Of a DNA stretch of 64,000 bases, positions 11,483 through 62,133 are shown in pieces. Both the position numbers and the translations under genes were made by a program. Numbering within the stretch: position 1 is the first letter of the stretch; every line of letters starts with the position of its first letter. The notes beneath the pieces are model-generated. The model was given only the letters and a program-made list of their open reading frames with translations. It was not told the origin of the DNA and did not search any database. This stretch comes from Balanoglossus misakiensis (lineage: Eukaryota; Animalia; Hemichordata): assembly GCA_040954595.2 (NCBI GenBank), contig CM082591.2, forward strand, positions 1,773,745 to 1,837,744, written 5' to 3'.

Positions 11483-14072
11483 ATGAGTGAAAGCCTGGGA
11501 GGTTGCGCTCAATGCGCCAAGATTCTTATGATCGTCTTCAATTTAATATTCTTCGTAAGTACAGAAAAAAATCATCCCTGTATTTTTGCAGTTTTTATCT
11601 GTGACACATGAAAGTGTGGTCGAAGGAGCTAGCACGAAAAAAGCACAGCTGTGCCAAAACAGCAAAAGTGATGACTCATCAACACACGTGATAGACCGTT
11701 ATTCAAATGAGTGACTACGCGTTTTGATGACTCATCACTTTTGTTTATACTTTCATGTATACATTGTATGCCCTACCCCTAACAGTTATGGTACCAAGCC
11801 CCTCTTTACACCTTTTCACAAATGAGGAATGTATACTAACTGCTCCCGTTCTCCATGACTAAACCAACAAGAATTTACTCAATGATTGTATACTTCGCAA
11901 AACTCATAGACACAAGTTGCCATCAAAACAATAGAATTCAAGCAAACCTTGGTGGCAAAAGGTTAAATGCATCATATCTTGTATTGATCTGCAACCTTCA
12001 CGTCACCACATAAATAAACTTTTATCTACCTGGATGGCATTTTGGACAAAAGCCGGTTTTACAGTATTACTCAATTTTAGGGGCAGGAAAAATATGAAAG
12101 TGTTGCAAAGCAGAGCTTAATTGAAGCAATATACAGTGAGCACATTCTTCTTTGTTCACAGGTTATTGGAGCAGCATTCTTGGGCGTTGGGATATGGACT
12201 GTGACAGATTTCTACAAGCCAGACATCTTGGCTATAATGGACAACCCAGCTATCACAAATGGAGCGTACATACTTATAGCAATTGGGGCGTTCATTTTTG
12301 TTCTGGCTGGTCTTGGTTTGTGTGGCGCTTGTTGCCAAAGCAAGTGTATGCTTATTTTGGTGAGTTCTTTGTCCTTTTTATTTCTAAGCTTTAAAGGGGC
12401 TTTAAAGGGACAAGCTGCGCTATTTGATATTACTTTTTTGGTTGTAACAAGTATAATTTCATTAGAAATTGAAGTCACAATATGAGTAGCTAAAAACTTG
12501 CAACTATTTCTGTCCTGTTAATCAGGCATGACTGGTGTAATTGTCCTAATATATAAAATAACTAATTATAATCCATTACCTTTTTACTTTCAGTACTTCA
12601 TCATTCTGTTGGTCGTTTTCCTGATCCAGCTCATTGCCTTTGGTATCGTCTTGGCATTTCAGAACAAGGTGAGGTTCATGCCGACTGTAATTCCATGATA
12701 TTGGCTGTAGTTCCCTGAGCTTCACTTAGAGTTGACAATCTGGTGCAGTGTTCAGATATCTTCAGGCATAGGTGCATCTTGGTGTAAAATATGCCTCTGA
12801 AACACTAAAGGTGGAAGTTTTTTTTTGTAATACAGTGCTTGCTCGAAATTAGAATCTGAGTAATCTGAGTGTAATAAGCTTGTTGCTCCATCTGTGATCA
12901 ACTTTTTTTCTGTTTGAATAGGTTGAGAGTTACCTGCGAACAGAAATGGAGGACAGTATGGACAGATACCAGGCCATTGATGGGACTGACACCTACAGTA
13001 CAGCATGGAATGCAGCACAGGCTTTTGTAAGTGTGATAGCATGGCCTCATGTGGGGCAGGGTGTGCTGACTATTTTCGAAACATCTCGCATCACTTCCTG
13101 GTCTTTTTTGCCGGAAGTCCAAGTATCTGTCTGTTACAGACTTGACTTTGTTCTCTGTGTTTTGTTGATTGTTTGTGTTGTGATTGTCTTTTCATCTGGC
13201 CATGTAAATACTGTGTATTTTGACTTCTGAGTTCATTCACAATCATGGGTTAGTTCTTTTCATTTCCAATTTCAGCTCCAATGCTGTGGCATCGAGAACT
13301 ACACAGAATGGCAGAGTACAACCTGGTATAGTGACCAAACACCGTATCAAATTGGCGGACAGTCAATCACCCTTGACTACCCATTATCATGTTGCTATGT
13401 GAGTATTTCATGTAATTAATTTTTTTCCACAACAGTAATCATGGCTTCACTTCATTTGCATTTTTGTTACAAATTATTAATCAACCAAATGCATCGTTAT
13501 AAAAAACTCTGTGATCTTTAAACTGGCAGGTTGAAGATCCAACAGCCATAGTGAATGGTGAGACACCGGAACCAGCTAACCTGACGGCATGTATTGGGTA
13601 TGGTGCAGCTATTCCAAATGAATTCATGTACGATGAAGGCTGCTACACCAGTCTGAAGAACTACTTTGTTGATAACATTTTGTATGTTGGTGCTGTTGGA
13701 CTTGGCATTGCCTTCATTGAGGTGAGTCATTGATCACAAATTTCTACAAAATGATAATTTTTTTTAAACTTTTACCTCAAATTTAGACAAAGTTGGATCT
13801 TTTCATTATTTCTGGCATGTCTGGATCAAAATTAAGTGATGTACAGCCTACAAATACCATATTTTGAAACAAATACTTGTAATTTGTGGTATCTTTACAC
13901 AGGTTTTTTGGCAGCAATTTTATGTGGCTTTCAAACTACACCTTATCTTTACAAAATTACACCTTCTTTGTGTGTGATAATCTCTGCTTTTTCCACCTAA
14001 CAGATCTTGGGTTTAGTGATATCCATCTGTATCTTCTGTGAGCTCAAAAAAATGGATAACACGGTGGCTTAG
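11483..14072 (+). CDS. Tetraspanin family protein, isoform with proximal last exon (ends ...CIFCELKKMDNTVA*)
   Basis: Exons 11483-11554, 12162-12359, 12594-12668, 12922-13026, 13276-13398, 13530-13721, 14004-14072; all GT-AG, phase 0, one open frame. Four hydrophobic TM segments, N-terminal CAKILMIVFNLIFF, and CCG, PLSCC and EGC motifs in the large extracellular loop. Probable 5' UTR acceptor at 11442, with a candidate upstream donor at 9941. Confidence 0.93.
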
Positions 14073-16367: not shown

Positions 16368-16457
16368 AGTCTCGGTTACCCAGACCCTTTGCTTCTCTCG
16401 ATGCTCTCCAGAAAAGAGAGCACCGGAAGAAGCAAAGGGGTCTGGGTAACCGATACT
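16368..16457. mobile_element. Short palindromic MITE-like element
   Basis: AGTCTCGGTTACCCAGACCCTTTGCTTCT ... AGAAGCAAAGGGGTCTGGGTAACCGATACT form near-perfect ~29 bp inverted arms, with further internal pairing (GCTCTC/GAGAGC). Confidence 0.7.
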
Positions 16458-24200: not shown

Positions 24201-26261
24201 ATTATCAGTCTGGGTAATCCTGACACAGTTGTGTCATGAAGCCGAACGCAAATCATCTAAACTTAGAATATTTGTTCGCAAAACTTTCACATCTTTATGT
24301 CGCACCAATTATTGCTTCACGTATATGGTAAGTAATGAAATTAAAAATCAATGGTCGACTGGCGGCCAACACTGGATCAGATTGCAAAGCTAATCATATT
24401 TTCTCGTATTATGGAATACACCAACGGACACTTTTCAGAGAAATATTCATGCAATTGGAAATATGGACCTCAGCCAGTCCACGTCCCTCGTATCCCAACG
24501 TGTTCTGTCAAATTTGATAGATCGACCTGTTTTTGAATCATTGTCATAATCTAATCTCGTTCTACCACAATACCTCTTCAAGTAATTGAGATAACTTAAT
24601 AGCTTTTTCTGTCGAAGTCCACCTAAGTCTTTGATTGTATACGTGCGACTTTCTGGCTATGACTTTGTCTTATTGTATTGTGCCGAAATAAATAACATGA
24701 AAATAATCCCCAAAATCCAAAAGGTTAAATTAAAGTGCTCGAATGACGTCATAGGCAGTGTAGCTATTCTATGCAAATTAGGAAGGTCGAGCTTGTCATT
24801 GGACAAGTGATTGATGACCCCGCATCAGCGCCATACAGTACAAACATTAAACTGGCCACCAAGACCAGAGACACGCGTTTATTAAATTTGGGTGCCATCC
24901 ATTGTCTGGAGTGGGAACATACATTACTTGGCCAAACTTTTGTTTATCTCTTTTCGGTTTTATGTGGAGTCTCAGACGAAATTTACGACGTTCCCCAAAA
25001 GTGCAATTTGAACCACCAAGATGTTGAACGTATTAACTTTTTTCCCCGGCTAACTTATCCACGTTTTCTGTGCCAAAGTTCGTCGAAATGTGGAAAATTT
25101 ACAGGTAACACGTTTCCCGTCGTCTGAATTCCAAATGAAAGTCAGCAATTGTGAAAACTTGGCTTGTTCGATTTTTACTATACTAGGGAGAACCTCGCAT
25201 TCAAAAGAGACTCATCTACCATGTGGACATGATGAAAAGTAAAGGGAGTGGTCAAGTGTTTATGGGTGAATGACATCAAATGATGGGTGCAGCTTCTGCA
25301 GTATTGCGAAACCCTTTTCTAACCGTGACAACTGTGTGATACGGCATTCATGGTTGCCTGTAAATGTATAAGTCGATTTCCTGAAGGCCTGGACAAAAAT
25401 TAAAAGACATTACATCACTCGTCACAATAAAACATCTGGTGATTCGAAACCTTGGAACATGACTAATCTCGGGGAAGGAATGTGTATCACTTTATCTGAA
25501 TCATATATTGGTGAAATGTATTTATTTTGTCCTCAGATGACCTCCCACCCAAACATGTGGGCAAAAGCCCTTACCAGTGTGACCACGATATGACAGTAAT
25601 TACTTTCTTCGTAGTTTGACGACCAGGCAATGTGACTGTATATGCAAATTCAACAGGTGTCCTCCTTTACATAAACTTTTGATAAACTAAATAAAACTAT
25701 GCGTTCATTTCTGTCAGTTGGCCTACATGGCTACCGAGGCCATAAGAGAAAACTTCAAAGTTATTATTTTGTTGGATAAAGCGAATGATGGATCTGTGTT
25801 GTTTTGGGAGGAAATATTAAGCCTTGATCCACGGCTGTGCTTTGGAATCTTGCCGAATGTTTACAGGAAGTCTGAGATAGAACATGCGTTTCCATTCCAC
25901 CGGGAAATCGACTTGAGTGGAAATTTCCTATGACGTGGAAATTCCTTACTGAAAGATATCAGCAAAGTGCAAGTAGGTAAATCCTTCAAAAACATCACAT
26001 GTTTACAAGAACCAGGAGTGACATAGTAGACGAGATTTGATTTCGCGAAGAATGTAGTCCGGGCTTAGGGCACTTTTCTTAATACATGTTTTGTTCCACA
26101 TCTCCGTGGCCGGGTCGGCGCTGGAATTTGCAGATCGCCTCACCCAAAATTTTGCAGAAATGGTGTGTCAGATCGGGCCACGGTCGTGACTCGATATACA
26201 CGTACCAATACCAAGCGGATAGCTCATATTGGCCAACGGGCTTAACACAAATGCGCCTATT

Positions 26262-26545
26262 CTGTACTGTACTGTTGTGTACTGTACTGTACTGTACTGT
26301 ACTGTTGTGTACTGTACTGTTGTGTACTGTACTGTACTGTACTATACTGTACTGTACTGTACTGTACTGTACTGTACTGTACTGTACTGTACTGTACTGT
26401 ACTGTACTGTACTGTACTGTGCTGTGCTGTGCTGTACTGTACTGTACTGTACTGTACTGTACTGTACTGTACTGTACTGTACTGTAATGAACTGTACTGT
26501 GATGTACTATACTATACTGTATTGCCTACTGTACTGTACTGTACT
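26262..26545. repeat. (TACTG)n pentanucleotide tandem repeat
   Basis: About 280 bp of CTGTA units with variants; it explains the spurious CTVLY-repeat ORFs. Confidence 0.97.
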
Positions 26546-27663: not shown

Positions 27664-27670
27664 TATAAAA
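27664..27670 (+). promoter_or_regulatory. TATA box of the deiodinase-like gene
   Basis: GGGTATAAAAG in a GC-rich context 90 nt upstream of ATG 27754; E-box CACGTG abutting AGGTCA at 27552-27563. Confidence 0.6.
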
Positions 27671-27753: not shown

Positions 27754-30700
27754 ATGTCACTGAGACTTCTATCCAGCCCGTGCGCTGGGCCCACTGCCGT
27801 GCACCAGGGCCCGATGCCCATGACGGGCCTACCGCCGATGAGCGGCCCCGGTGGGAAAGTTATCCCACCCGATGGTCCTCCACCGATGTCGATGATGGCA
27901 AATATGATGAACGGTAAGCTAAAACAATTTCACCCATTTGTATGTTCATGTATTACTAAGGGAAACAATTATTTCAAGAAAATTTAAACTTTTGGCAAAT
28001 TTTAGAAATGAATATATTAGGAACATTGTAATACTCGAAAATATTTTTTGCAGTGTTTAAGAAATATATTTTTGAGCTCTTCACGATTTTATCACAACTG
28101 GCATAGCGTTGGTTTTTGTTTGGATTTTGTAATAAAGTATCTGGAAATGTAATTTTACGTGCCTGTAAACTAAAAAAAGCGCTGTCTGCACAAAGTTGAC
28201 ACGTTTGCGAATAAATAGAAGATAGGGCTATACTATTTCGATGCAGCATTTTGCCAACAAAACTTTCTACATACTTTCGCGAAAAAAAAACCCAAGATGA
28301 TTCAAACTCGCCTGACTTTCCGCTGTAGTCGTAAGACTACACTCGTCCATGCCATGTGGTATTAAACGACATTTTCCACCGTATGACGTACATTTCAACC
28401 TGTTAGCGTATTTCATCACCATCTATCGTTACTCTGTATGTATATAATTACATCAAAATTTTCCCCAAGTCAATGTAAACCTTATTTCTCGTGGAGTTTG
28501 AGAACTTGCTGTTTGTTTTTTTACCAGGGGCAAAACGTCTTATCTTTCGACCATCTTTTTTTCTATTCGATGGGTGAGAATATCGTATTCCACGCCATGT
28601 CACGCTAACGTAGAATATAAAAGACGATTTACGTCATATAGAATATTTGTTCTAACTCGAACACCTAGTGTAACAATAGGCGGAACCAGCAGACGACAAA
28701 GTTATCGTTGTTCGTCTTAATGGACCTCTCATTTACAATACGCTGCTTAAGTGTGTCGCGTCTGGTTCCAAAGTCCTGTTTCTAGGAACACGTACACAGC
28801 CTGGGTAACCGCTACGAGACCCATTAAGAATTTAGTCCAACTTTTCGCTAAGATACTAGACCAGTCGACTGTCTAATCGGAAACTGACAGAAATAGGCCG
28901 AGTCAGAAATTATCGTCTGCTACAAATTTACATGAATATGATTCATTTTTGACAAACAAAACTTACTTAAATTTATCGAAAGTACAGGGAAAGTTGATAG
29001 ATACTGTTTGCAATTGCATTACCATTTTGATTGAAGGAATTCGGGGATAAATGATGTCTACCAAGTGAAAACGCTTCATTTGAGACGGAAAGTGAAATTC
29101 GGTAGGTGAGGTTTGAGAGAAATCAGGGAATGGGGTTCTTAATCCAGCATAACACTTTTTGGAGTTGCTCCAATATGTGTCTGGCTTTAACCGGCGCTGA
29201 TTTCCGATGACCGAATTACGGGTACATCAAATTCGCAGTTTACTCGTGAGAAGTTATAAAATGTACGTGCGCGACGAGTTGTTTCTCGTGATCGTTGTTT
29301 GGCGTTTTGTGGGTTACTTTTGGTTCAGTTGAAAACACGCGTAACTTCTAGCGCTCTGATTGGTCCATCACAGTAGCGCCATACGCAACTCCGCAGTGAC
29401 GTCATTCCATTGACGTCACTCATTCTCGGTAGAAGACCTGTTCGCTAATACGGTCCCATGGCCGGGCCTACGAAGGGACAATATGGACTGCTTTTTCAGC
29501 GAACTACTGACGCGTGCATGACTCATGCTAGAAAAATCTCCGCGAATAGTCATGCCACTGTTAACGAATGATTCCCAAGCCAGCTGACAGTAAACAACGA
29601 AGTTTTTCTCCGACTTACTTCGTCTTCGCGACGAGGGAAAGCCCCACCCATTAACTTTATCTTTCAAAACCTTTCCTTATCAAATGACGTTACAATATCA
29701 CATAGCTAGGAATAAAATTGCTTAATTTACTATCGACACTGCAAAATTACACAAGGTATACAACAAGTGAAAGCGGAATTTGTGTCTTGCTGATATGAAC
29801 TTAAAAAGCTATTAACTCCAAATATTTAGTCATTGAAATACATATAGTCTTTCGTTATTATCTGAAAAATGCAACCGTTGCGGAAATTTTACGTGGGCGG
29901 ACCATGCACAGATACGTGCACAGATGCACAAGACACGAGATGACCTCCAGGTTATGTTGAGACCAGCTGGATGTTGTCAGCAAAATGTCAAATGATTTGA
30001 TGAGTGAAAAGGTTACTCCAATTCTGTTTGCCCTGTCGAATACTGCAATATTGTACACAGGCTAAAATATGAATATGGCTCTACTATTTCAGGGAAATTA
30101 TTCAAGTTCCTACAAGACAGGGAAACTGTGATTAAGATAGCGATGAAACATCGCCAGCATACATTTTCCGAAGAAACCCAACACAAGTACAACTTGCTGG
30201 ACCCGTCGAATCGAACCGTTATCCTCGGAATGATGACAATATGGTCGGACACAGCCAACCAAGTTCTCCGGGAGACGTGCCCTGAATTTCCCGACTTCAA
30301 AGGGACGCCATTTGGGGTATTCGCTATAGAGATGCTTCTACAGAAGTACGAGAATGACCCTGAGGTATACAAACCACTATTTATCCAAAAAATCTTAAAA
30401 ATTGGAAGTCGTTCAGGCTATTTTCGGTCGACGATTTCCCGCCAAAATCAAGACAATGTTTCTCGGCCGTCATTAAAATTTTCATCAGAAAATACGCCAA
30501 CTAGAAATGATAATTTCGAGGACGGTCAACGATTAATATTTTCGGGCTTGTGTGTAAATTTAACAAGAAACAACCATCATATATCTGTTTTTTCTTTCAC
30601 ACAGGTTCGCCGCCATCTTGATTTCATGTACGAGTTTAAATCCATGATGCAATCTGGCAACCTGACGATAGGCGACAGAGCGCCCGATGTAGAGATTGTG

Positions 30701-32972
30701 AACCTCGATTCCAAACAGTGTCAACCACTGTCAAGCCTTCATTTACATAACGATAGACCGATGGTCGTCATCGCTTCGTCATTTAGCTGACCCCCGCTTA
30801 GGGTGAGTTTTAAACTTTAATTTATAAAAAAAAAAGATAAATTAGATGGTGATTTTGGTAATTTTTATCGCATGTACCCACAGAGTTTACAAGACCAGAT
30901 ATCAGTTTTTGCTGAACCCTGCCTCTTACAAATAATGGCAAATAAAATTTCGAATTAAATTTACTGAACAGAACTTCGAAAGTATTAAAATATTAAAATT
31001 ATATTAAGTAGGAATTTACTGACCCGTGCCTCTTGTAAATATTGCCAAATAAAAATCTAATAAACTTAAATGCAAAAGAGTTGACACCGAGTGTCTAAAA
31101 TGGTGTACGATATTTCAGACACGTAAAGAAATCGGGTGATTTCTAATAACCAATCAAATTTGTTGGTTTGGGGGTCTGTGTTCCGTTATGCATCGGGTTA
31201 CATGATAGGGTTACATGATACATCTGCGTAACAGCTAATGCACGTGACGATCGCGTGTATAACTTTCCATGCGCACGTGGACATCCTAGCCCATGAGATG
31301 TTGCTGCCATAGGCGAAAGATGACTTTAATTATTATAATTTTAACCAGTGGCTTACATATTTTATCCTTGGAGACTAAATAAGGAAAGAACAAAGCAAAA
31401 CAATACTTCTTCGATCGGTTAACCAGTTCAAAGATCATTTTTAAACTGCACGTACAAGTTTTCCCTCTGCCCTCCAATAACTGTGAACCGGCCCACTTTT
31501 TGTGCGGTTGACCTGCCACGAACGCTGCGCTTGTGTTAGGATAACCCTAGGCCAAGGTCTCCGGTTAAAATGTTTGTCGGAAACGATAATTATGACGGGT
31601 CAAGGTACTTTATAAAGAATCTGAAAGCGTGTATAGGGCTTGGTACACCCCGTGACCACAGGCATCTGAGATTACCAGGGTTAAACTAAGTTCATTCTTA
31701 CAACATACTTCGTAGCGTAGGCACATTACCATGGTGGCGCTGGCCCATAGAAACGATATCAAGCTGACCCCAAAAAAAGTCTAAAACCAGTAAACACGAA
31801 AAGCATGACGGACGACCGTATTCTTACGTTACACGAACTTACAAACAAACTTCTTAGTCGACGGAAAAGAAACGTAGTGACCTACAAAATGGCGAACATC
31901 CTGTTTCTCAATCGGCATTTGATGTTTTTCTCAAGATCCCGGTTTGTTGACCGGACTCCGTTCGACGTAACAACTTGTTGACAGAAAATACACTCAATTG
32001 AACTGCCAGAGTGATGAAACATCGCCGAGAAAGTACTAATCCCTTTAAGTCACGCACGAAATCCTCTTACAAAATATCACCACCGACATTTTCCGACTAC
32101 ATGTATTTCCTTCAGTGTGCGGTCGTAAGTTTAAGGGTTATTGGCGGTCAAATCCCTTGCAAAGTGGGTCTGGCTCATTTACCACAAGTATGCGCTTGCG
32201 CTTGTCTAATTTTAGCGTCAGAGGAAAAGTTTAGGTCAACTTTCTTATTACATGTATTATTATTATTTGTTTATTTCAGGCCATCGTTGATGGCGGCCAT
32301 CTGTCAAGACTAGTAGCAGACTACAAGTCGGACGTCGACTTTCTGTTCGTCTACCTGACAGAGGCGCATCCAAGAGACGGCTTCAGAATGGGGCGAAATT
32401 TCAGCTTCATGAAACAGCACAGAAGTTTGGAGGAGAGAATACAATGCGCACGGTGAGCATTTTAGGGATTCGCGCATGTATGACGGACGCACAGACAATT
32501 TTTTCGTCTGCCCACTAAATATTCATATCGGCTATAGAGAATTTTGGATTTAAACTTAAATTGCACGGTTTGGCGAACTTGAAAATCACTGTTTGGGTTT
32601 AACATTAATTGAGAGAAGACAAAGTATTTGCGGCATGCATTTTCATATAAAAATATTTGGGGAAAAAATAAAGATTGACTCACCTTTTTTATTCTTTTCT
32701 CTTGTAGAGAGCTTCCCAGCAAAGATGGCGACACTTTCACCTCCGACTTGCACTGCGGGTCAAAAGTTCGAGTTGTAGCAGACACAATGGAGAACGACTT
32801 CAACCGAGCCTTCTGTGCACATCCAGACCGTTCATTCATCATCGAAAATGGCAAAATGGTGTTCATTGGGGCCATCATGATAGACCAGCTGAAGATGCCA
32901 CAAAAATTGACCACCGACCATTTGAGAGAGTGGCTTGAAAACCGTTTTCCTAACGCTGCATCGTCGAAATGA
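27754..32972 (+). CDS. Iodothyronine deiodinase-like selenoprotein (~355 aa, Sec at ~residue 206)
   Basis: Exons 27754-27913, 30093-30364, 30605-30802, 32280-32452, 32708-32972 join in frame (phases 1,0,0,2) with one internal TGA at 30788-30790. Deiodinase motifs occur in order: GDRAPD, RPMVVIASSFSUPP, DFLFVYLTEAHPRDG, QHRSLEERI, VVADTMEN, AHPDRSFIIENGK, LREWLE. A SECIS is present in the 3' UTR. Confidence 0.9.
29360..29418. promoter_or_regulatory. Intronic CCAAT box plus two tandem perfect CRE sites
   Basis: ATTGG at 29360; TGACGTCA at 29397-29404 and 29411-29418, within intron 1 of the deiodinase-like gene. Confidence 0.5.
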
Positions 32973-33847
32973 ATTTCCTCTGACAATAAAATGACTGACA
33001 TTTCCCCCATTTCACCAGCATTCCGTTCAGACTGCCATGCTCACAGGCGCTTCAGGAACTGTACACCGATAACAAAACTTTCGAACACCCCAAACTAAGA
33101 GAGCTAGACACAGCAAAATATACTTCAGCGCTTGCACGCCGTCTCCCTTCTGACCGAACGAAATATACAGAAGAATAAAAACAGGTGGTTTATTTGCATG
33201 TAGACAGTTCTTCCCGAGCGTCAAAACGACAGGTGCGAACCGAACAGTAGACACCTCGGCGACAAAGTTTTGCATATTTCCTCGCTGGCCGGTTGGTGGC
33301 GCAATATACCCTAGCAGGTTATTCGAAAAGCAGCGCCCGACAATTCAGAGAGGATTTATATGCTTGAAATTTATCACCAACCAAGCTAGCGAAAATATAT
33401 TTATCAAGCACTGTAAAAATAGCATCACAAGCTGTTTTTATAGCCATTTTGAAAACTGTTCATGTGAAAATGCCACCATAAAGTGCTGTTTGAAATTTCC
33501 GAGCAGCATACCACTGGCCAACCGTCCGAGTCAACATCAGTCTTATTGTCAATCTATGCAGCCTAAAAGTTGCATGATAGTCCCTGTTTTTATCATCTTT
33601 GTTACCGGATAAGAAAAAAACTTAAGTTATTCGTCTGAAGATAAGTTGTTTTATCAGTGAAGTAAGAAAGAAAACTTGCATTGAAAAACTGCTTGGAATT
33701 CACGATGTCAGCCTCCTATTTATTGAATTTCATGATTTAAGTTAGAATATTTTATTTTATCTGTTCTATTTGGTCTCATACACCCTTTACCTGAAATAAC
33801 ATTTAAATGTAAAATACAACCTCGTTGCAAGCTTTTCAGATGCTCAT

Positions 33848-33942
33848 ACTGCCCTCTATGTGAGGACTTGTGACAGCTAATCGGTAAAACCCGACAACAG
33901 AGGGCGCTGATAGGCTCGATTTTCTCCCTTGCACGAGGCAGT
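33848..33942 (+). promoter_or_regulatory. Eukaryotic SECIS element (type II, GUGA core)
   Basis: Core G-TGAC (33870-33874) / CGAT (33917-33920). Helix II AGCTAATCGGT:GCTGATAGGCT (11 positions, one mismatch). Unpaired AAAA at 33886-33889 and apical mini-stem CCC/GGG. Helix I TGTGAGG:CCTTGCA, extended by ACTGCC(C)TC:GAGGCAGT. Confidence 0.88.
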
Positions 33943-33998: not shown

Positions 33999-34004
33999 AA
34001 TAAA
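33999..34004 (+). terminator. Polyadenylation signal downstream of the SECIS
   Basis: AATAAA 57 nt after the SECIS, followed by a GT/T-rich tract at ~34021-34050. Confidence 0.65.
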
Positions 34005-34402
34005 GCATATTTAACTTCAATGTAGTTTGTGTGGAGTCTTTGCTTTTTAAGTGTCAACATGGTATTTGTATGAAGGAAACTGAACTTATTAAAAGGATAA
34101 GTTTTTGTGCCTCAAAATTCACATGTTCAAACTTTTGCCTGTACTTTATAAAAAGAAAACTGTCAAATTAGAACACACAGACTCCTCTGTAATCAGGACA
34201 ATTCTTTATTAAGGAGATTTTTCAAGATAAAAGTTACAATTTATGGAATTTTATCCGTCTATTGAGGACACACTACTATCTGGATGTGTCCGTATAAGAC
34301 AGGTTTTAATACATACATGTATCTAAAATAAGAAGTCTGTTATTCTAAAGTAAACTGATTGAGTAATTTACCATTCCGAAGAAATTTGATTGGTTTGATG
34401 TA

Positions 34403-36484
34403 CTAGGAAGCCATCATGACTGGTCTGTGTTTCTTGGCCTCCAGGTCGACTCCAGTGCTGGCAAAACCAGTACCACCCTGAAAACAAAACAACAAAAATA
34501 AAAAGGAAAATGTCAAAAGAGATAGACAAGTACATCAGTCTAGTTTGCTTTGGAGATGCGATGTGATGTGGCATACACAGGCCAGACAAGATTAAACATG
34601 TGTACATGTTTACTCACCCTCTGTAACTTGATGACATCATTCTCGGTGATCTTCTCACCACTGATGGGGTCCACCATGTCTTTCTTGATCAGTTTTTCGT
34701 AACATTCCACCGTGATAACTTTGCAGCTGTGGGAACAAGGTGTAAATATTTCTAAGTCTCACATAATATGAACATAGGAATTTCCATGCATAGCTGACAA
34801 GGTTCTTAGATAGGAATTTACATGTATAGCCACCAAGGTTCTTAGATAGGCATTTCTATGCATAACAGACACCTTGCCAAAACCATCAATTCCTTCACTC
34901 TATATGGGTCCAGTTTATATAGGTTTCACTGCATTAGGTGCGACACTAGTCCAAAGAATGAACAACAAACATCCCTTTCTCACCTTGTTTTCAACACAGC
35001 GACCGGCGTAGAATTGGACAACGTATCGCGAGTGACCGCACACATGTAGCGGGCATCTTTATTCAGTAAATGGCGTTTATCATCAGCATCATTCACCTCC
35101 ACAAACTCAATATTCAGAAGGTTTTTCACTTTCAGTGGTTTCTTACTCATTGGACACAAAACGTGCTTGTCCTGTGAAAGAAACAGAAATGTAGAAGATG
35201 AAGATTAGGCTCAGAACGCAAACTGTCCCACAACACCCTGCGTTATGCTATCCGCGAAGTGGTCTATGTTCCTGGTCAACTTCCACCAGTGTCATGACAA
35301 AGGTTCCACCCTGTTATTATAAGTCTCATCAGGGTCACTCCATTATATCATATAGGGGTGTCCACTTACAGGTTTCTTGATCTGTGTGGGTTTAGCATCG
35401 GGTGTCAATGACGGGATCCAGAAACTAGGCAGTTCTTTGGCGGATTTCCCATTACTTGTCTCTCCGTTGGTCTGACTGCTTGTACCTGGCTGGGGTTCGG
35501 ATTCTGTGGTTGACGTCTTCTGTTTCTTGGCTGGTGGACCATTTGTGAATGGGTTGATTGGTTTGCTAGTGATGCTACGTTCTGTTTTGTTTAGAGTATA
35601 AAAAATAGTAAATTGTAACTTTACAAATTTATATGTGTGTGTGTCTTCCTATATAATGACTACTGAATTGAATGGAATACTTTACCAGTTTCAGCAAATC
35701 TCTTCAGGCTCTTCTGTTTTTCTTCACCATTTTTGGTGGACTGTTCCATCTGCAAGTAAAATATTAAAAGATTAAAATATATATGAATGTTCACAGCAAG
35801 TGTAGACCACACTACACTGTACATGGAAATGTAGATCGTAATGGAAGTACAGGTCACAGGTATCCATGATCACTACACTTTCTTTGACCTACAACTATCT
35901 GTCTGGATATCTTACCTCCAACTGTTTCTTTTGTCTTTCAAATTCCTTCTGTTGCCTAGCGATAGCTTGCTTCTGGTGTAAGATGTATTCCAGGATAGCT
36001 TCCTTGTCATACAGCCATCCATCGGGTCTGGAAGGCAGACGAGGAAGGACAACTTAGGTCGATGAGAAAGGATGCTTTTCCTTTGAATAATTTCTTACAC
36101 ATATTATAATTCTTGTTTAAAATTTGACTTACGTTACCACTGGATTTTTGCACGGTTGTAATGTAAGACAACAACAGTCAAAATTTCTTGTTGAGTCTTT
36201 GCCCAGTCGGCCCTGCTTGGTTCCATATCCCGATGTTTCTGTTAAATGTACAGAAACAAAACAAGCTGATTTAGATTGTAAACAAATGCAACATACATGT
36301 ACATGTAGGTTACATGACCCTTGCAGTTACATGTAGCAATGCACAGAGCAGAAAAAGAGCGTCGCTCGTCTACAGCAAAGCGACATTGACTTTGAAAACA
36401 TTGTTGCTACTTGCCTGTATCCTTCTTTCTTTCGTGGTACGAGTAAACCGTCCCGGCTGTACAATTTCGTTGATGTCGCGTCAT
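34403..36484 (-). CDS. NOSIP: Nitric oxide synthase-interacting protein (U-box/RING E3-like, spliceosome-associated)
   Basis: Exons 36484-36415, 36238-36133, 36027-35916, 35749-35686, 35581-35370, 35171-34984, 34726-34618, 34477-34403. Translates MTRHQRNCTAGTVYSYHE..., RLGKDSTRNFDCCCLTLQPC, DGWLYDKEAILEYIL, LPSFWIPSLTP, LQRGGTGFA, RPVMMAS*. Confidence 0.96.
34774..34871. repeat. 36-bp minisatellite (~2.7 copies) in a NOSIP intron
   Basis: Unit ATAGGAATTTCCATGCATAGCTGACAAGGTTCTTAG recurs at 34774, 34810 and 34846. Confidence 0.85.
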
Positions 36485-37063
36485 TTTTTTTACGCCGACT
36501 GAAACAAACACTTCTTCAAAACATCAACTTCCTGTCCAAACAACTCGAGGGGGTTTGTGGGTAGGTCACCCTGCACCCAACTTCACGCAGTAAAATAATC
36601 ACAAGAACACGTAATAAAACGTATTTTGACCAAATAGGACTATTTTTACATATCAAAACGTATAAAATTTGATAAATAAATAATTTTAACGCATTTGTCT
36701 GACTAATTTATGCTACGCTTGTTGTTTTATCTCGTACAGTTTGAACTCTCGCAGATTCTCGCATATGTACAAAGGTTAGAGGTCAGCTGGAAGCCATGTG
36801 TTTGAGCGAGGCCGAAGGACTTGATCGCTGTTTATGCGAAGACATGCACGAAAAAGTACCTGATTACGGCAAATATTAGGGTAACTGTCGTGTATTGTGA
36901 GCCCCGCTTGTTTTGATTTGTGAAGGGAGCACCCAGATCTACGCTTATAGCTTGTAACCCTGCCGCGGCTGGGATCGGTCTGTTGATGACCATTTGCTAG
37001 TAAACAACTTCCGCACATTGGCCCAAGACTCCGCTGTCTGTCTTCCAAACATTATGTGATACC
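36485..37063. promoter_or_regulatory. Bidirectional promoter NOSIP / POLR1F
   Basis: Divergent ATGs 579 nt apart; ETS-type ACTTCC motifs near both ends; TCTCGC repeats at ~36747-36762. Confidence 0.7.
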
Positions 37064-38588
37064 ATGGCTGCTAAAACTTTTCAAGAAGCGAAGCAGTATC
37101 TTGACGATCCATACTCTTGTTTCAAGCTAATCAGCACGACCAAACACATCACATTACCACCATGTTACCTGGGCAAACTGAGGAGTGGGGTGAAGGAAGA
37201 ACTTGGTTCTGAAATGCAGCTTTTTTCGGACAGGTAATGCCTACTCACACATTGGTACCCTTGTCATCAACCCAAGCCATCACAGCACACAACACAGTTT
37301 CCAGCAAACCCAGTGACGTTTCAACATAGCCCAAAGCTGGCCAGATTGAGCTACTAGTACTTTGCTGGGTTGATGTCTGGGTAACATTTATGCTTTTTGT
37401 GTCTTCCAGCCTGAATGGTGTTCTAATTGCATTTGAAAATGTGAAGTTACTCAAGCCATTTGGTGATATCCTAGATGACCAACCCTACATCCATTTTGAT
37501 GTTAATGTAGATATGATTATATTCCAGCCAAGTGTGGGTTCCCTGGTGCGGGTAAGTGGTCGACTTTTTACCCACAATGCAATTCAACATCCATGGTTTG
37601 ATGACTCATATTGACAACTTTGCTGCATCTCTCTTCACAGGGCGTCGTACACAAGATCGCTGTGGACCACATCGGGTGTCTGGTCCATGGTTGTTTCAAC
37701 GCTGCAATTCTTAAACCTAAGCAAGAGGTGAATGGTTGGAAAGGTGCCGGAATGACCCTTGGGGAAGAGTTCATCCTGAGGGTGGTGAGGATAGAGACGG
37801 AGAGGGGGGTTCTATCAATGAAAGGAGTAATTGAAGACATGTAAGTTGACTTGTGTGCCTTGACTGTTAGTTTCTCTAGCCCGCCTGTTACAAAACACAT
37901 GACTGTAGTTGCAGTGTGGTGTGGTTAATACAAACTTGTTTGTGGTCATAGCAGACTCGTTACATTTTTCTTGTGTTTTATCATCAGAGAACTACCGAGA
38001 GGATCAAATGCAGCTTTGAGAGAAACAACAGCAAGCATGGAGACAGAGTTAACATCGGTCAAACAGCGTGTGCTCGGAGAGAAGTCGGGAAAATCACGGA
38101 AAGGATCAAAGAAGTCGTCAGAGAAACGAGACACAAGTGAAGAAGGCAGCAATGTTGGTGAGATCGATGGAAAAGTGACAGTTGGAACTGAGGGGGTTGA
38201 TGGACCGACACAGAGGAAGGAAAAACGGAAGAAACGGAAAAGGGATAAACTGCAGACTGCCGAGACCGATCCTGTCACTGACAGACTTGTAAAGATCGAA
38301 CAAACTGATCTGGACAGTCCCAGTTCCAAAAGACCAAAGATAGTTGAGGGTGTAACAACAGGACAGAATAGCGGGGATTTGGACGGTGGGAGTACATCAA
38401 AAGGACAGAACGGCGACATGGGTCGACCATCTTCCCCTGGAAGGAAGAAGTCAAAAAAGTCGAAGAGAAAAGAGAGTGTTGAAATACACAACAGTGAGGT
38501 CGTGAATGTCAAAGTTGAACCCAAAAGTGATGAACTTGATAATGTCAAAAAGAAAAGTAAGAAATCAAAGAAGAGTAAAAAGAAATAA
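37064..38588 (+). CDS. POLR1F: DNA-directed RNA polymerase I subunit RPA43 (TWISTNB)
   Basis: Exons 37064-37233, 37410-37551, 37641-37840, 37988-38588. Motifs HITLPPCYLG, LNGVLIAFENVK, FQPSVGSLVRGVVHKIAVDHIGCLVHGCFNAAI; long Lys-rich C-terminal tail as in RPA43. Confidence 0.93.

Positions 38589-41174: not shown

Positions 41175-62133
<20,959 letters not shown>

Follow-up and report, generated by a model that had tools for sequence, protein, structure and literature searches.

The deiodinase-like locus and its neighbours

The window (the whole 64,000-nt stretch of Balanoglossus misakiensis DNA that was analysed) contains a five-exon deiodinase-like gene on the forward strand, with an in-frame TGA in its coding sequence and a SECIS-like hairpin between its stop codon and the next gene. 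The neighbouring genes are ordinary. A NOSIP gene (34404-36900, reverse strand; zf-NOSIP E 6.9e-6, PDB 8c6j E 5.6e-13) converges on the deiodinase-like gene and stands head to head with an RPA43-like gene (37004-38588, forward strand; PF17875 E 2.8e-4). The window also contains an XMAP215/CKAP5-like TOG gene (about 43400-59500, reverse strand), a tetraspanin gene (12081-13733, forward strand), a pentanucleotide microsatellite at about 26250-26520, and long inverted repeats at 16368-16457 (90 nt) and 56856-56998 (143 nt). When a second deiodinase or SECIS was sought in the window, tblastn returned this gene alone.

Features of the coding part of the gene (+, forward strand; P0002 and P0003 are orthologs and P0004 a C-terminal half, all described below):
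near 27665, +: TATA-like box, ahead of exon 1
27754-27913, +: exon 1 (coding), with the ATG; Pro/Met/Gly-rich N-terminus, alignable with those of P0002 and P0003
30093-30364, +: exon 2, the bulk of the helical N-terminal domain predicted from models of relatives; no Pfam match
30605-30802, +: exon 3, with the last part of the helical domain, the first part of the thioredoxin fold, and the catalytic motif; PF00837 20.9 bits
30788-30790, +: in-frame TGA, residue 206, SSFS-U-PP (TGA-CCC-CCG); predicted selenocysteine codon
32280-32452, +: exon 4, coding for the deiodinase insertion, including Tyr235, Glu238, His240 and His257; PF00837 48.6 bits, E 8.5e-13; 4tr3 E 6.7e-10
32708-32972, +: coding part of exon 5, with the TGA stop, followed by the 3' UTR; PF00837 28.9 bits, E 8.9e-7; 75% identity to P0004

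The five exons, all with GT-AG borders, join into a frame of 1068 nt that encodes 355 amino acids, with a single internal TGA at codon 206. Exons 4 and 5 score above the PF00837 cut-off of 27 bits and exon 3 below it, and exon 4 matches the mouse Dio3 and Dio2 structures. A consensus donor follows 12 nt past UGA 30788, and exon 4 continues in frame. Splicing around the UGA was rejected, as both GT sites that lie in phase ahead of it deviate strongly from consensus and the donor at 30803 is consensus. A Sec-redefinition hairpin 3' of the UGA was also unsupported, with 582 and 779 of 1000 synonymous shuffles folding equally well. Intron 2, of 240 nt, contains no stop and keeps the frame of exons 2 and 3, making a 260-codon open reading frame (30008-30790, forward strand) up to the UGA; its retention would add 80 residues, and the orthologous proteins have no such insert. 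Residue Pro272 (32708-32720, forward strand) is Ile in the Ptychodera ortholog, and this stretch is helical in the model of the relative P0016.

Relatives in hemichordates and echinoderms

Orthologs are represented in the database by two entries from Ptychodera (XP_070564793.1 and XP_070572425.1) and one from Glandiceps (XP_077994540.1). P0002 of Ptychodera flava is 71% identical over residues 1-205 and P0003 of Glandiceps talaboti is 62% identical; both end at residue 205. A separate C-half entry of P. flava, P0004, is 77% identical over residues 204-348; its match starts at the first residues of exon 4, and its own first 18 residues have no counterpart upstream in the family.

A profile of the N-terminal half, searched against 1.84 billion representatives, matched 18 proteins at E<=0.001. 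Sources were checked for 11 of these 18, of which two are environmental records and nine come from named species: Ptychodera (2), Glandiceps (3), Saccoglossus, Anneissia, Amphiura and Apostichopus, that is, three hemichordates and three echinoderms. The gene is taken as a likely member of a subfamily of predicted soluble deiodinase-like selenoproteins in hemichordates and echinoderms. P0002, P0004, P0005 and P0022 are of one species, as are P0003, P0007 and P0013, and within each set the longest contig has an identical length, which suggests paralogs on one chromosome. In a tree of the N-terminal halves only the clade of the three orthologs is resolved (100/100), 11 of 17 inner branches being left open; the metagenome member L001 groups with P0018 and P0021 (96/94) as a second branch.

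When P0002 is included in the alignment, 17 of the 19 relatives end one column before the position of the in-frame UGA. The other two are P0016 of a sea cucumber, which is full length and has Cys in that column, aligned with the Sec-to-Cys residue of the structures 4tr3 and 9h48, and P0007, in which the stretch around the column is missing and the sequence resumes at the start of exon 4. The stop codon was verified on DNA for one of the 17 shortened relatives, L001 (121-1230 of a metagenome record), and a TGA is presumed in the other 16. In L001, a TGA directly follows the last annotated residue and is followed by Pro-Pro and about 140 codons of deiodinase domain (68 bits), so that the record holds an intronless, complete member of the family; the record stops 85 nt past the stop codon, too short for a SECIS. 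A Sec-redefinition hairpin in L001 was unsupported (178 and 66 of 1000 synonymous shuffles fold equally well), another candidate, L002, was a spurious match of 39 residues, and when longer relatives of the metagenome members were sought among lengths of 488-2000 residues, none turned up.

Protein architecture and predicted function

Hydropathy analysis revealed no hydrophobic segment (highest 19-residue Kyte-Doolittle mean 0.64 within residues 1-160, and 1.21 overall), and on hydropathy the protein is predicted to be soluble and to have no transmembrane anchor. Vertebrate deiodinases, in contrast, are described as N-terminally anchored membrane proteins (PMC8143656). They are reported to be active as dimers that are stable only with the N-terminal membrane region (PMC11592359), which is a point against the enzyme reading proposed below. 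In the acorn-worm protein a helical N-terminal domain of about 100 residues would occupy the place of the vertebrate membrane anchor.

Structure models of the relatives P0016 and P0002 were used in place of the joined protein of the window. In the P0016 model (mean pLDDT 76.9) a helical domain at residues 26-119 precedes the thioredoxin fold. The P0002 model, which ends at the UGA, has the same helical domain (pLDDT 85-96) and a poorly ordered end (pLDDT 49 and 32); the stretch that is poorly ordered there scores 89-91 in the full-length Cys relative P0016. The helical domain had no convincing Pfam match in its 19 members and no Foldseek match at E<=0.001. Its best VIA-align result, Sap1 (6ext; Z 7.1, rmsd 3.5, 91 residues), is commonplace for helical bundles, and is neither a fold match nor proof of a new fold.

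By its sequence, the protein is a member of the deiodinase superfamily. It shares with DIO1-3 (PF00837; 4tr3, 9h48) the thioredoxin/peroxiredoxin-like core, a predicted Sec-Pro-Pro, the deiodinase insertion and the Ser/Tyr/Glu/His/His relay. It differs from them in having the helical domain instead of a transmembrane helix, the motif S-F-S-U instead of S-C/A-T-U, extra segments inserted behind the catalytic helix and within the C-terminal half, and replaced Trp, Phe and Lys/Arg substrate residues. It is filed as a variant because the membrane anchor of DIO1-3 is absent. Deiodinase homologs termed DI-like selenoproteins have been reported in invertebrates, protists, fungi and bacteria (10.1101/314781), including a homolog in Dictyostelium (PMC2375036) and expansions in four invertebrates (PMC3473315). 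These too are Sec-containing deiodinase homologs outside vertebrates, often in multiple copies, and are compared here without their domain architecture. The catalytic parts of P0004, P0007 and P0016 score 43-50 bits against the bacterial family NCBIfam NF038285 (deiodinase_rel), whose cut-off is 250, and the N-terminal domain does not match it. The literature searched contained no description of the N-terminal domain or of ambulacrarian members, which the supplements of PMC3473315 and 10.1101/314781, sources available in part, could catalogue.

Residues were mapped by motif, with mouse Dio2 numbering as given in PMC11592359. The relay residues Ser127, Tyr157, Glu160, His162 and His182 of mouse Dio2 are all kept, as Ser203, Tyr235, Glu238, His240 and His257; Thr129 corresponds to Ser205, and the acidic-Arg pair Glu225-Arg226 is kept in kind as Asp308-Arg309. 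At the substrate site, Trp167, Phe224 and Lys241 of Dio2 are changed to Phe245, Pro307 and Ile324; Dio1 also has no Lys/Arg of the thyronine site. A shift of substrate would have a precedent: an amphioxus enzyme of the Cys type is reported to accept Triac and Tetrac and to be inactive on T4 and T3 (PMC8143656).

Because the Ser/Tyr/Glu/His/His relay is kept, the enzyme may be a dehalogenase that removes halogen from an aromatic ring through selenolate attack in the cytosol, and because the Trp, Phe and Lys/Arg clamp is changed, its substrate may be other or wider than T4/T3; judged from residues such as these, the chances for and against this assignment are about even. The protein could instead be a peroxiredoxin-like or thiol oxidoreductase built on a deiodinase scaffold, with Sec and SECIS both real. 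This is unlikely, though with a substantial chance of being right. In its favour, the Dio2 residues Trp167, Phe224 and Lys241 are replaced, the proximal Cys of Dio1/Dio3 is Phe, some relatives come from metagenome records, and the next-best folds for the P0016 model are thiol-disulfide oxidoreductases and peroxiredoxins; against it, Dio2 and Dio3 lead that fold search (E 1e-9) by four orders of magnitude in E-value, the deiodinase-specific insertion is kept with its Tyr/Glu/His/His and with the acidic-Arg pair, and there is no CxxU motif.

The SECIS-like hairpin

The 3' UTR was examined for the hairpin that the sequence-only reading had described as a complete SECIS with a GUGA core, and every part was found where that reading had placed it.

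Parts of the hairpin (+, forward strand):
33848-33942, +: type II SECIS-like hairpin, comprising helix I, internal loop, G-UGAC/CGAU core, helix II, AAAA bulge and helix III
33859-33865/33927-33933, +: helix I, 7 bp, with an outward extension to 33848/33942
33866-33870/33921-33926, +: internal loop, 5 + 6 nt, open
33870-33874, +: 5' core, G33870 instead of the usual A, then UGAC; a known variant
33871-33874/33917-33920, +: quartet UGAC/CGAU, non-Watson-Crick
33917-33920, +: 3' core CGAU, with C at the K of the consensus KGAW, so that a C.C pair sits above the tandem G.A
33875-33885/33906-33916, +: helix II, 11 positions, 10 of them paired (7 Watson-Crick and 3 G-U), one A.A
33886-33889, +: unpaired AAAA, 11 nt above the core
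33890-33892/33902-33904, +: helix III, CCC/GGG, 3 bp, pair probability 0.94, with a 9-nt loop

The unconstrained minimum-free-energy fold reproduces this geometry with the quartet unpaired (pair probabilities 0.86-1.0, and 0.86-0.99 for the 7 bp of helix I), and within the whole 1-kb UTR the mean pair probability is still 0.88 for helix II and 0.95 for helix I. The folding energy is modest compared with shuffled sequences: z is -2.36 for 111 nt (2 of 200 shuffles), -1.75 for the exact 95-nt element (12 of 200) and -2.04 for a 42-nt cut (7 of 200), and on the reverse strand it is -0.44.

In common with type II SECIS elements (Rfam RF00031, SECIS_1), the hairpin has helix I, an open internal loop, the invariant UGA/GA tandem correctly placed where helix II begins, a purine before the core (the R of RUGA, here G33870), a helix II of 11 positions (norm 11-13), an unpaired AA and helix III. 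Its genomic position would suit a 3' UTR element of an mRNA whose coding sequence includes a Sec UGA. It differs from them by the G before the core, by the C at K and by an Rfam score below the gathering cut-off. Two departures from consensus thus occur in the same hairpin, the second of which the sequence-only reading had not flagged, just as it had passed over two AATAAA hexamers 5' of the hairpin and the unusual architecture of the host gene.

The first departure is well documented. Published examples with G ahead of the core include every Ostreococcus SECIS except one per species, as well as several genes of zebrafish and nematodes (PMC2375036). In the sponge Amphimedon, 12 of 21 SECIS elements have it, nearly all others in the same six-invertebrate survey being AUGA (PMC3473315); that survey has no hemichordate or echinoderm among its species. 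The hairpin shares the G for A with these elements and differs in that its host is a hemichordate. An A-to-G change in the rat GPx SECIS is cited as costing about 30% of incorporation (PMC1874613), and UGA/GA alone is described as invariant in the SECIS core (PMC2647825). As to the second departure, CGAU departs at K from the majority consensus KGAW of the 3' quartet (PMC3753652, PMC2647825) and is compatible with NGAN, which each of the four SECISearch patterns uses there. Above the G.A tandem come the C.C pair and then A-U and G-C, in keeping with the reported preference of SBP2 for a non-Watson-Crick pair followed by purine-pyrimidine pairs at this place (PMC1874613). Two markers of weak human SECIS elements (U at -7 and G-C at +2; PMC2761289) are both absent in the analyst's own numbering, which is weak evidence.

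The four published SECISearch patterns (PMC3753652 supplement) were re-implemented. The strict and loose patterns, which begin with ATGAN, miss the hairpin, whereas the default pattern (RTGAN) and loose+ detect it. The earlier description of GUGA as a non-canonical, rarer core that strict patterns miss therefore holds for ATGAN but not for the default pattern, and G at this position is widely published. Because GUGA is a published working variant and RTGAN accepts it, the element itself is ordinary. By the filters of SECISearch3, applied by hand, the hairpin passes (apical part 20, stem 11, no bending, -19.8 kcal/mol) and would be graded at least B, grade A requiring a Covels score.

Covariance models were less favourable. 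Rfam returned no match at the gathering score in the whole window, and no SECIS at E<=10 in a 2.5-kb query. With 131 nt as the query, SECIS_1 was the sole family returned and was covered over its full model, at 12.6 bits (cut-off 35; E 8.5 over 4227 families). The proposed covariance-model check thus had a borderline outcome, a full-length match whose score is far below cut-off.

The default pattern has four matches in 128 kb (the window, both strands), of which the hairpin has an upper-stem energy of -12.7 and the other three -1.1, -2.6 and -2.8. When the UTR was shuffled, 36 of 1000 sequences contained a default match and none a match at <= -11, a threshold chosen once the energy of the hairpin had been seen; the corresponding numbers for loose+ were 676 and 46 of 1000, and a separate home-made scan was consistent (7 of 500 and 0 of 500). 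In block shuffles totalling 3.84 Mb, 2 of 191 default matches reached -12.7, which is about 0.5 per Mb, or about 0.0005 per 1-kb UTR.

These results bear on whether the gene might be a selenoprotein gene in which the hairpin resembles a SECIS by chance or is a copy that has decayed, recoding being directed by another element or by none that is recognisable. The sub-threshold SECIS_1 score, the C at K and the default matches in shuffled UTRs speak for this, as does a report of true fungal selenoprotein genes without detectable SECIS (10.1101/314781). Against it, the hairpin is the sole default match from the stop codon to the next gene, the other loose+ matches in the same interval (33449 and 34355) have far weaker upper stems (-2.2 and -6.9), equally stable matches are rare in the block shuffles, and the hairpin sits just ahead of the best poly(A) signal. 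A look-alike is very unlikely, and the hairpin is, with high confidence, a real type II SECIS.

Poly(A) signals

The sequence-only reading had placed the core about 900 nt after the stop codon and an AATAAA just downstream. G33870 lies 897 nt from the stop codon (32970-32972), and AATAAA 33999 begins 56 nt past the element, in agreement on both counts.

AATAAA hexamers (+, forward strand):
32985-32990, +: 5' of the SECIS, weak context
33174-33179, +: second one 5' of the SECIS, weak context
33999-34004, +: likely main poly(A) signal, with TGTA twice upstream and, downstream, the element richest in U/GU

Contexts were compared among four hexamers. If AATAAA 32985 or 33174 were used, the mRNA would contain the premature UGA and no SECIS. 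The likely signal of the convergent NOSIP gene, at 34210, is about 200 nt from the deiodinase signal. Overlap of the hairpin with the NOSIP UTR was rejected, since this NOSIP signal lies beyond the element.

Probable selenocysteine at UGA 30788

The hairpin had been put forward as independent support for reading UGA 30788 as Sec. Its geometry and position fit that role; the protein evidence for Sec is independent of the hairpin and much stronger than the RNA evidence. Overall, it is very likely that UGA 30788 is read as Sec. That it is instead a true stop ending a 205-residue protein, with the downstream exons a separate gene or remnant, is extremely improbable: the RefSeq entries of relatives end at the UGA, a separate C-half entry exists and the upstream AATAAA sites could remove the SECIS, but truncation at Sec codons is reported as an error familiar from database annotation (PMC12822975), nothing upstream in the family matches the opening 18 residues of the C-half entry, a stop here would cut the thioredoxin fold after its first strand (compare the poorly ordered end of P0002 with P0016), the consensus donor and in-frame exon 4 follow the UGA, and both P0016 and L001 continue through the position.

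As a whole, the reading in which a GUGA SECIS directs UGA 30788 to be read as Sec206 of a soluble deiodinase-like selenoenzyme of 355 residues is probably correct. By this reading the 3' end of the mRNA would form at AATAAA 33999, SBP2 or SBP2L would bind the tandem G.A kink-turn of the hairpin, and eEFSec/Sec-tRNA would deliver Sec at UGA 30788, as in the established eukaryotic pathway. Recoding efficiency may be moderate, given that G costs about 30% in the mammalian test. If recoding failed, or if the mRNA ended at the signal of AATAAA 32985 or 33174, a premature stop would remain ahead of exon junctions, and the message would probably be a substrate for decay.

Implications

The value of the SECIS is its support for a selenoprotein that databases split. 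Since most entries of its relatives end at the Sec codon, the deiodinase repertoires of ambulacrarians are likely to be undercounted. Acorn worms contain bromophenols and bromoindoles. A more far-reaching proposal, doubtful at present, is that the gene belongs to a subfamily, so far undescribed, of deiodinase-fold selenoenzymes that are soluble, have multiplied in hemichordates and echinoderms, and are masked by gene models ending at the UGA. In such enzymes a new helical domain would take the place of the anchor, and the reshaped active site might dehalogenate non-thyroid aromatics such as these compounds. If the protein is indeed anchor-less, it would be a natural enzyme of the deiodinase fold that is easier to express and crystallise whole, and would bear on the dependence of deiodinase catalysis on dimers. 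The family could also be used to test the role of deiodinase homologs before vertebrate thyroid signalling.
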